Assembly: GCF_003334355.1 (NCBI RefSeq) | Contig: NZ_QOWP01000076.1 | Length of the DNA stretch: 2,326 nucleotides | Origin: Escherichia coli | GTDB lineage: Bacteria > Pseudomonadota > Gammaproteobacteria > Enterobacterales > Enterobacteriaceae | Reading direction: 5' to 3' (one strand) | Shown: positions 123-2,326 of the stretch, in pieces | How the letters are laid out: each line of letters starts with the position of its first letter | Position numbering within the stretch: the stretch's first letter is position 1 | The notes under the pieces: generated by a model | Told to the model about the DNA's origin: nothing | Seen by the model: the letters and a program-made list of their open reading frames with translations, nothing else | The model's database searches: none | Made by a program: the position numbers and the translations under genes

Positions 123-2326
123 GGTTAAGCGACTAAGCGTACACGGTGGATGCCCTGGCAGTCAGAGGCGATGAAGGACGTGCTAATCTGCGATAAGCGT
201 CGGTAAGGTGATATGAACCGTTATAACCGGCGATTTCCGAATGGGGAAACCCAGTGTGTTTCGACACACTATCATTAACTGAATCCATAGGTTAATGAGG
301 CGAACCGGGGGAACTGAAACATCTAAGTACCCCGAGGAAAAGAAATCAACCGAGATTCCCCCAGTAGCGGCGAGCGAACGGGGAGCAGCCCAGAGCCTGA
401 ATCAGTGTGTGTGTTAGTGGAAGCGTCTGGAAAGGCGCGCGATACAGGGTGACAGCCCCGTACACAAAAATGCACATGCTGTGAGCTCGATGAGTAGGGC
501 GGGACACGTGGTATCCTGTCTGAATATGGGGGGACCATCCTCCAAGGCTAAATACTCCTGACTGACCGATAGTGAACCAGTACCGTGAGGGAAAGGCGAA
601 AAGAACCCCGGCGAGGGGAGTGAAAAAGAACCTGAAACCGTGTACGTACAAGCAGTGGGAGCACGCTTAGGCGTGTGACTGCGTACCTTTTGTATAATGG
701 GTCAGCGACTTATATTCTGTAGCAAGGTTAACCGAATAGGGGAGCCGAAGGGAAACCGAGTCTTAACTGGGCGTTAAGTTGCAGGGTATAGACCCGAAAC
801 CCGGTGATCTAGCCATGGGCAGGTTGAAGGTTGGGTAACACTAACTGGAGGACCGAACCGACTAATGTTGAAAAATTAGCGGATGACTTGTGGCTGGGGG
901 TGAAAGGCCAATCAAACCGGGAGATAGCTGGTTCTCCCCGAAAGCTATTTAGGTAGCGCCTCGTGAATTCATCTCCGGGGGTAGAGCACTGTTTCGGCAA
1001 GGGGGTCATCCCGACTTACCAACCCGATGCAAACTGCGAATACCGGAGAATGTTATCACGGGAGACACACGGCGGGTGCTAACGTCCGTCGTGAAGAGGG
1101 AAACAACCCAGACCGCCAGCTAAGGTCCCAAAGTCATGGTTAAGTGGGAAACGATGTGGGAAGGCCCAGACAGCCAGGATGTTGGCTTAGAAGCAGCCAT
1201 CATTTAAAGAAAGCGTAATAGCTCACTGGTCGAGTCGGCCTGCGCGGAAGATGTAACGGGGCTAAACCATGCACCGAAGCTGCGGCAGCGACGCTTATGC
1301 GTTGTTGGGTAGGGGAGCGTTCTGTAAGCCTGTGAAGGTGTGCTGTGAGGCATGCTGGAGGTATCAGAAGTGCGAATGCTGACATAAGTAACGATAAAGC
1401 GGGTGAAAAGCCCGCTCGCCGGAAGACCAAGGGTTCCTGTCCAACGTTAATCGGGGCAGGGTGAGTCGACCCCTAAGGCGAGGCCGAAAGGCGTAGTCGA
1501 TGGGAAACAGGTTAATATTCCTGTACTTGGTGTTACTGCGAAGGGGGGACGGAGAAGGCTATGTTGGCCGGGCGACGGTTGTCCCGGTTTAAGCGTGTAG
1601 GCTGGTTTTCCAGGCAAATCCGGAAAATCAAGGCTGAGGCGTGATGACGAAGCACTACGGTGCTGAAGCAACAAATGCCCTGCTTCCAGGAAAAGCCTCT
1701 AAGCATCAGGTAACATCAAATCGTACCCCAAACCGACACAGGTGGTCAGGTAGAGAATACCAAGGCGCTTGAGAGAACTCGGGTGAAGGAACTAGGCAAA
1801 ATGGTGCCGTAACTTCGGGAGAAGGCACGCTGATATGTAGGTGAAGTCCCTCGCGGATGGAGCTGAAATCAGTCGAAGATACCAGCTGGCTGCAACTGTT
1901 TATTAAAAACACAGCACTGTGCAAACACGAAAGTGGACGTATACGGTGTGACGCCTGCCCGGTGCCGGAAGGTTAATTGATGGGGTTAGCGGTAACGCGA
2001 AGCTCTTGATCGAAGCCCCGGTAAACGGCGGCCGTAACTATAACGGTCCTAAGGTAGCGAAATTCCTTGTCGGGTAAGTTCCGACCTGCACGAATGGCGT
2101 AATGATGGCCAGGCTGTCTCCACCCGAGACTCAGTGAAATTGAACTCGCTGTGAAGATGCAGTGTACCCGCGGCAAGACGGAAAGACCCCGTGAACCTTT
2201 ACTATAGCTTGACACTGAACATTGAGCCTTGATGTGTAGGATAGGTGGGAGGCTTAGAAGTGTGGACGCCAGTCTGCATGGAGCCGACCTTGAAATACCA
2301 CCCTTTAATGTTTGATGTTCTAACGT
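123..2326 (+). rRNA. rrl: 23S ribosomal RNA (large-subunit rRNA), 5' ~2,200 nt covering domains I-IV and the start of domain V; 3'-truncated by the window edge
   Basis: Begins with the canonical enterobacterial 23S 5' end GGTTAAGCGACTAAGCGTACACGGTGGATGCCCTGGCAGTCAGAGGCGATGAAGGACG. Conserved landmarks fall at the expected E. coli positions with a constant offset of +122: G745/U746/U747/G748 at 867-870, the GTPase-associated centre 1051-1108 at 1173-1230 with A1067 at 1189 and A1095 at 1217, A1618 at 1740, G1835 at 1957. Downstream the offset is +124: helix 69 GGCCGTAACTATAACGGTC at 2030-2048, U1939 at 2063, C1962 at 2086, A2030 at 2154, G2057/A2058/A2059 at 2181-2183, G2069 at 2193. The window ends at about 23S position 2202, inside the L1-stalk region. 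Confidence 0.97.

Follow-up and report, generated by a model that had tools for sequence, protein, structure and literature searches.

Does the part of a 23S rRNA gene held by this stretch of Escherichia coli DNA carry a resistance substitution at any of the nucleotides on which antibiotics act, and how much would the answer say about the strain from which it came? The window, as we call the whole stretch that was analysed, is 2,326 nucleotides long. Searched with Rfam model RF02541, its positions 123-2326 on the + strand scored 2063.9 bits, well over the curated gathering threshold of 50 bits, which places them among the bacterial large-subunit rRNAs; the match runs over model positions 1-2228 of 2925, and its 3' end is cut by the end of the window. 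Megablast of the window gave a match in every one of the complete E. coli genomes (5,426/5,426), at a median of seven places per genome, and 4,291 of the 5,436 matching records were at least 99% identical to it, so that near-identity to E. coli rrl is evident. What the window holds of this gene is 2,202 of about 2,906 nt (76%), in one copy of seven. The best match is rrlE of PSS-12, with 1 base different over 2,326 nt (the listed identity of 100.0% is a rounding); no exact copy of the window was found among the complete E. coli genomes in the collection, and the next four listed matches score as two mismatches; its source would accordingly be an unsampled strain or an assembly other than a complete one. 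The parts of the window, and the PSS-12 gene with which we compare them throughout, are as follows.

1..122, + strand: 3' end of a 16S-23S spacer of rrnE type, recognised from its identity to rrnE spacers and a StyR-44 match
4-12, + strand: boxA core GCUCUUUAA in the spacer end, presumably the rrn antitermination element
103..130, + strand: 5' strand of a long stem pairing both 23S flanks, found by cofolding, which we take to be the RNase III processing stem
123..2326, + strand: 23S rRNA gene, E. coli positions 1-2202, with domains I-IV and the start of domain V
NZ_AP027697.1 2632794-2635699: PSS-12 rrlE, in an rrnE operon between purH and yjaB/metA with the order 16S, tRNA-Glu, 23S, 5S

The 122-nt spacer shows no difference from the rrnE spacers of K-12 and PSS-12, yet it is just 1-3 bases away from those of K-12 rrnA, rrnB, rrnC and rrnH, and the tRNA-Glu and the neighbours purH and yjaB/metA were seen in PSS-12 only, lying outside the span of the window. 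The StyR-44 match (Rfam RF01830, 124.9 bits at 7-115) looks like merely conserved rrn spacer, whatever the word 'gene' might suggest. When window 96-132 was cofolded with PSS-12 sequence taken from the 3' end of the 23S gene and its flank, a near-continuous duplex of -48.8 kcal/mol was predicted.

Positions in the gene are given here in the numbering of MG1655 rrlB (2,904 nt), obtained by pairwise alignment with the window. In this alignment rrlB 1-1869 lies at an offset of +122 and rrlB 1870-2202 at an offset of +124, and the jump between the two is due to an insertion of GT at window 1992-1993. The window stops at rrlB position 2202, in keeping with the earlier note, which had put positions 2447-2611 beyond it. 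Because K-12 rrlB is a drug-sensitive reference, the question of resistance substitutions reduces to that of the differences between the window and rrlB.

We compiled a list of 25 covered resistance positions from three papers (PMC8614978, PMC12745486 and PMC11700844) and general knowledge. From the first came A1067, A1095, A1069, G1071 and 2057-2062, from the second G745, G748 and the 2058-2067 range, and from the third C2192. All 25 tabulated positions (25/25) have the rrlB base, and the differences of the window from rrlB all lie elsewhere, which bears out the claim made earlier for this DNA that the covered region has no known target-site resistance substitution. The list also includes A752, U754, G2032, C2055 and the helix 69 positions 1913, 1915 and 1920, which we take to be drug-related sites. 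The regions in which the listed positions fall are these.

867..876, + strand: domain II hairpin loop, presumably of helix 35; G745, U746, U747, G748, A752 and U754 all wild type
1173..1230, + strand: GTPase-associated centre, positions 1051-1108; A1067, G1068, A1069, G1071, A1095 and A1096 wild type
1341..1390, + strand: positions 1219-1268, an intact segment identical to rrlB
1370-1387, + strand: pentapeptide mini-ORF GUG CGA AUG CUG ACA UAA (23S 1248-1265), with the translation V/M-R-M-L-T-stop, presumably the erythromycin-resistance pentapeptide MRMLT
2037..2044, + strand: helix 69 positions A1913, U1915 and C1920, presumably capreomycin/viomycin-related, all wild type
2156, + strand: G2032, wild type
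2179..2191, + strand: 5' strand of the domain V central loop, positions 2055-2067; G2057, A2058, A2059, A2060, G2061 and A2062 wild type

Read through the alignment, the individual bases are those that the earlier note had named: G748 at window 870 is G, A752 at 874 is A, A1067 at 1189 and A1095 at 1217 are both A, and at the entrance to domain V we find G2032 at 2156 (G), G2057 at 2181 (G), A2058 at 2182 (A), A2059 at 2183 (A), G2061 at 2185 (G) and A2062 at 2186 (A). Thiostrepton touches A1067 and A1095, and indels at A1069/G1071 likewise confer resistance (PMC8614978). A resistance allele for the thiopeptides thiostrepton and micrococcin was not found in the window, there being no change at A1067, A1095, A1069 or G1071 and no indel over rrlB 1-1869. 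Among the other sites, the mycoplasma changes G745A and G748A are associated with macrolides (PMC12745486), and positions of the 5' strand of the domain V central loop appear as resistance sites in two of the papers (PMC8614978, PMC12745486). Positions 745, 748, 752, 754, 2032, 2055 and 2057-2067 are all the same as in rrlB and hold no allele for resistance to macrolides, lincosamides, streptogramin B, ketolides, phenicols, oxazolidinones or pleuromutilins, with most oxazolidinone positions (2447-2576) falling beyond the window. Deletion of 1219-1230 is said to give erythromycin resistance, in which the pentapeptide mini-ORF reportedly plays a role; this deletion is absent, window 1341-1390 being equal to rrlB 1219-1268. 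The mini-ORF at window 1370-1387 is itself intact, with GGAGG upstream.

'C2192', 'C2534' and 'G2766', taken from a review of linezolid in S. aureus (PMC11700844), were tried as E. coli positions and rejected, as the E. coli copies examined have U, A and A there. U2192 sits at window 2316. Since E. coli natively has U2192, A2534 and A2766, the S. aureus alleles start from another native base or follow another numbering, and they are unreadable across species.

How much weight a wild-type result carries depends on how often anything else is seen. For this we used as queries 61-mers centred on the site, in which one mismatch lowers the identity to 98.4%; about 37,900 rrl copies were matched per search. 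The wild-type 61-mer around 2058 was found exactly in 5,433 of 5,433 records, and the exact A2058G and A2059G 61-mers were each found in 0 of 5,433 records, from 5,426 complete E. coli genomes. Wild type is the default state of E. coli rrl at 2058/2059, and the window shows what any copy would. Published surveys had the same outcome: the sequencing of 66 E. coli isolates turned up no 23S mutation, for which the authors gave as the reason that there are seven gene copies and that several mutated alleles are needed (PMC6465286), and a set of 1,007 E. coli genomes, which included 165 azithromycin-resistant ones, was likewise free of such mutations (PMC11215539). As an aside, 10-13 of the 23S matches in the E. 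coli collection were on plasmids and not on chromosomes.

For the 3' 702 nt of the gene and for the other six copies, PSS-12 serves as a proxy only. Its seven rrn operons were located by synteny, and each rrl is 2,906 nt long. All seven copies (7/7) carry every difference between the window and rrlB but G1529A, and all seven, taken at full length, have the rrlB base at 19 further positions in 2234-2766, including 2447, 2451-2453, 2499-2505, 2576 and 2609-2611. In the 3' part they differ from rrlB only at 2735, 2794, 2796, 2799 and 2802, the last four of which also vary among K-12 copies.

A few other observations on the PSS-12 genome may be recorded here. Its rrl copies are much more uniform than those of K-12, with just 8 variable columns, where the K-12 copies have a compensated block at 1723-1735 as well as numerous differences dispersed elsewhere, and in rrlG T137A and A142T change jointly, which suggests a compensatory pair. 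Near rrnD, dprA is split by an IS3-family IS1203 transposase (L012:22504-24942). A large lateral-flagellar cluster (lafA, lafU; flg, fli and flh paralogues), which we believe to be absent from K-12, lies between dinB and rayT/yafL (L014:10314-48141) and shifts the rrnH coordinates.

With a probability of about 0.97, then, we read the window as the end of a spacer followed by nucleotides 1-2202 of a normal, functional rrnE-type E. coli 23S gene from a PSS-12-like lineage, with the drug-sensitive base at each covered resistance-associated position; the identity of the gene, the mapping of its coordinates, its wild-type bases and the frequency of such bases in the population were established directly. 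The target nucleotides form the L11/thiopeptide pocket, the macrolide site at the tunnel entrance and the A-site side of the peptidyl transferase loop (PMC8614978). We propose that the wild-type base stands at each covered resistance position because the GTPase-associated centre, the entrance of the exit tunnel and the peptidyl transferase loop are made up of these nucleotides. In such a scheme the target nucleotides would be under strong purifying selection in E. coli and would be held uniform over the seven rrn copies. Judging from the wild-type bases, we expect normal binding of thiopeptides, macrolides, lincosamides, streptogramin B, ketolides and phenicols by ribosomes that contain the product of this copy, as long as no post-transcriptional methylation of the rRNA takes place. 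Methylation of the Erm, Cfr or Tsr type leaves no trace in the sequence of an rRNA gene; Erm acts at A2058, Cfr at A2503, Tsr/Nhr at A1067 and RlmAII/TlrB at G748.

From a normal site to a susceptible strain is a further step, and the alternative that survives best concerns this step. The strain could be resistant in spite of the wild-type fragment, through mutations in the uncovered peptidyl transferase centre or in other rrl copies, through Erm/Cfr methyltransferases, through drug-modifying enzymes like Mph(A), or through efflux, and the fragment would then mislead. We consider this unlikely. The phenotype of the strain is not deducible from the window, because the window is one partial copy of seven, the effect depends on copy number, methylation is invisible in DNA, and the outer membrane and efflux intervene. 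Resistance by rRNA mutation scales with the number of mutated copies (PMC11700844, PMC6465286), and the window spans 2,202 of about 2,906 nt of a single copy. Macrolide resistance in E. coli is due to mph(A), to erm and other acquired genes and to efflux, and not to 23S mutations (PMC6465286, PMC11215539), and the intrinsic tolerance of the species to macrolides is dominated by the outer membrane and efflux pumps (PMC6465286). Of E. coli isolates, 22.7% had one or more acquired macrolide resistance genes, and in 91.2% the MICs were influenced by efflux (PMC6465286); the window, which holds rDNA only, is silent on acquired resistance genes either way. The part of this alternative that invokes rRNA mutation, however, has much against it: neither A2058G nor A2059G occurs in any copy of any complete E. 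coli genome, in PSS-12, the nearest genome, wild-type bases stand at the listed positions of each of the seven copies as far as 2766, and the 1,007 genomes already mentioned had no 23S mutations (PMC11215539).

The remaining alternatives concern the places at which the window departs from rrlB. There are 6 substitutions and one 2-nt insertion, with 2,196 of 2,202 aligned positions identical; the differing sites are C1211U, G1529A, G1723A, U2132A and the tip variant at 1869-1872, which falls at window 1992-1996, and none of them is a tabulated resistance position. Five of the six substitutions recur in further copies of K-12 or in every copy of PSS-12, G1529A being the exception. A full-text literature search for the substitutions of the window brought up nothing but unrelated genes from human, parasite and viral sources, with none tied to rRNA. 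The sites are listed in order along the window.

1333, + strand: C1211U, an ordinary inter-copy variant; T also in K-12 rrlH and rrlA and in 7/7 PSS-12 copies
1651..1664, + strand: domain III hairpin of 5 bp with a UACG loop and with G1529A at window 1651, from alignment and fold; we take it to be helix 59, near the tunnel exit
1845, + strand: G1723A, an ordinary inter-copy variant; A also in K-12 rrlH, rrlD, rrlC and rrlA and in 7/7 PSS-12 copies
1989..1998, + strand: hairpin-tip variant, 23S 1867-1874, made up of the GT insertion at 1992-1993, C1870A and A1872C; presumably the tip of helix 68
2256, + strand: U2132A, an ordinary inter-copy variant; A also in K-12 rrlD and in 7/7 PSS-12 copies

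At the tip of the helix-68 hairpin, GC-GCAA-GC in rrlB becomes GCG-GUAA-CGC in the window, so that a stem of 2 bp becomes one of 3 bp and a GNRA-type loop is retained; the predicted folding energy goes from -3.0 to -5.6 kcal/mol, and the gene becomes 2,906 nt long as compared with 2,904 nt. The same variant is found in 7/7 PSS-12 copies, and K-12 rrlA has another length variant at the same spot.

G1529A is the sole private change of the window and the sole base that sets it apart from PSS-12 rrlE, and it is found in 0/7 K-12 and 0/7 PSS-12 rrl copies. One may ask whether it is simply a sequencing or assembly error, in which case the window would be an exact copy of a PSS-12-type rrlE. A lone difference in 2,326 nt invites this thought, and repeated rrn operons are error-prone in assemblies. 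Against it, the exact G1529A 61-mer occurs in 9 of 5,096 records, about 0.2% of complete E. coli genomes, these being 9 independent genomes that include human, chicken and duck isolates and two NCTC strains; and the change is a structure-preserving transition, in which the closing pair goes from G.U to A-U, the predicted fold stays the same and its energy goes from -7.0 to -7.6 kcal/mol. An error is thus improbable to our mind, and we go on with G1529A as a genuine allele of the window's gene, one that makes for a stronger closing pair in a surface hairpin of domain III and stands on a background with no exact match among sequenced genomes. Carriers of the allele such as PK8277 have it on an rrl background slightly different from that of the window. 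The 61-mer around 1529 (23S 1499-1559) gave no match at all in 337 of the 5,426 genomes, though all of them have 23S genes; these unmatched genomes (~6%) must have further differences near enough to block a 28-nt seed, and this region of domain III is therefore relatively polymorphic.

It is conceivable that G1529A marks a functionally distinct ribosome variant, for instance one with altered contacts at the rim of the exit tunnel, as opposed to a neutral polymorphism, but we hold this to be very improbable. Still less credence, next to none, is given to the idea that the response to drugs is determined, in some uncharacterised way, by G1529A or the helix-68 tip variant. Its attraction is the rarity of G1529A, exact in so few records and in 0/14 of the compared rrl copies. 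Both changes nevertheless keep their predicted hairpins (G.U replaced by A-U in one, one added pair and a GNRA-type loop kept in the other), neither 1529 nor the helix-68 tip is among the tabulated drug-site positions, the tip variant is fixed in all 7 rrl copies of PSS-12, an ordinary faecal isolate, and the literature search connected neither of them to rRNA. Both places are, we assume, far from the known drug pockets. Lastly, the idea that the map of the earlier note was shifted and concealed a non-wild-type base at some target position, which its two differing offsets, given with no reason, might have encouraged, falls away entirely, since the alignment to MG1655 rrlB matches that map exactly, both offsets being right on account of the GT insertion, and all positions agree.

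The finding that the covered target nucleotides are wild type is correct and ordinary, and it matters very little. Screening of 23S target sites in E. coli is close to uninformative in practice, and a wild-type result cannot discriminate within the species. The one technical point that can be reused is the +2 shift in numbering after 1869: as the helix-68 tip is longer in some lineages, automated look-ups that work free of alignment would misread positions 2032-2062.

Set beside the systems with which it can be compared, the window differs from each in its own way. PSS-12 rrlE is the same at 2,325 of 2,326 bases, among them those of the spacer and of the helix-68 tip variant as well as C1211U, G1723A and U2132A, and has G at 1529 where the window has A. 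K-12 MG1655 rrlB is the same at every tabulated antibiotic-target position, and the six substitutions and the 2-nt insertion lie outside those positions. The resistance alleles known from Mycoplasma, Rhodothermus, Treponema, staphylococci and other species that have few rrn copies (A2058G, A2059G, G2057A, A2062C, G748A, A1067C and others) concern the same gene and the same positions, and in contrast to these alleles from genomes with few rrn copies, the window carries the susceptible base at all of them.
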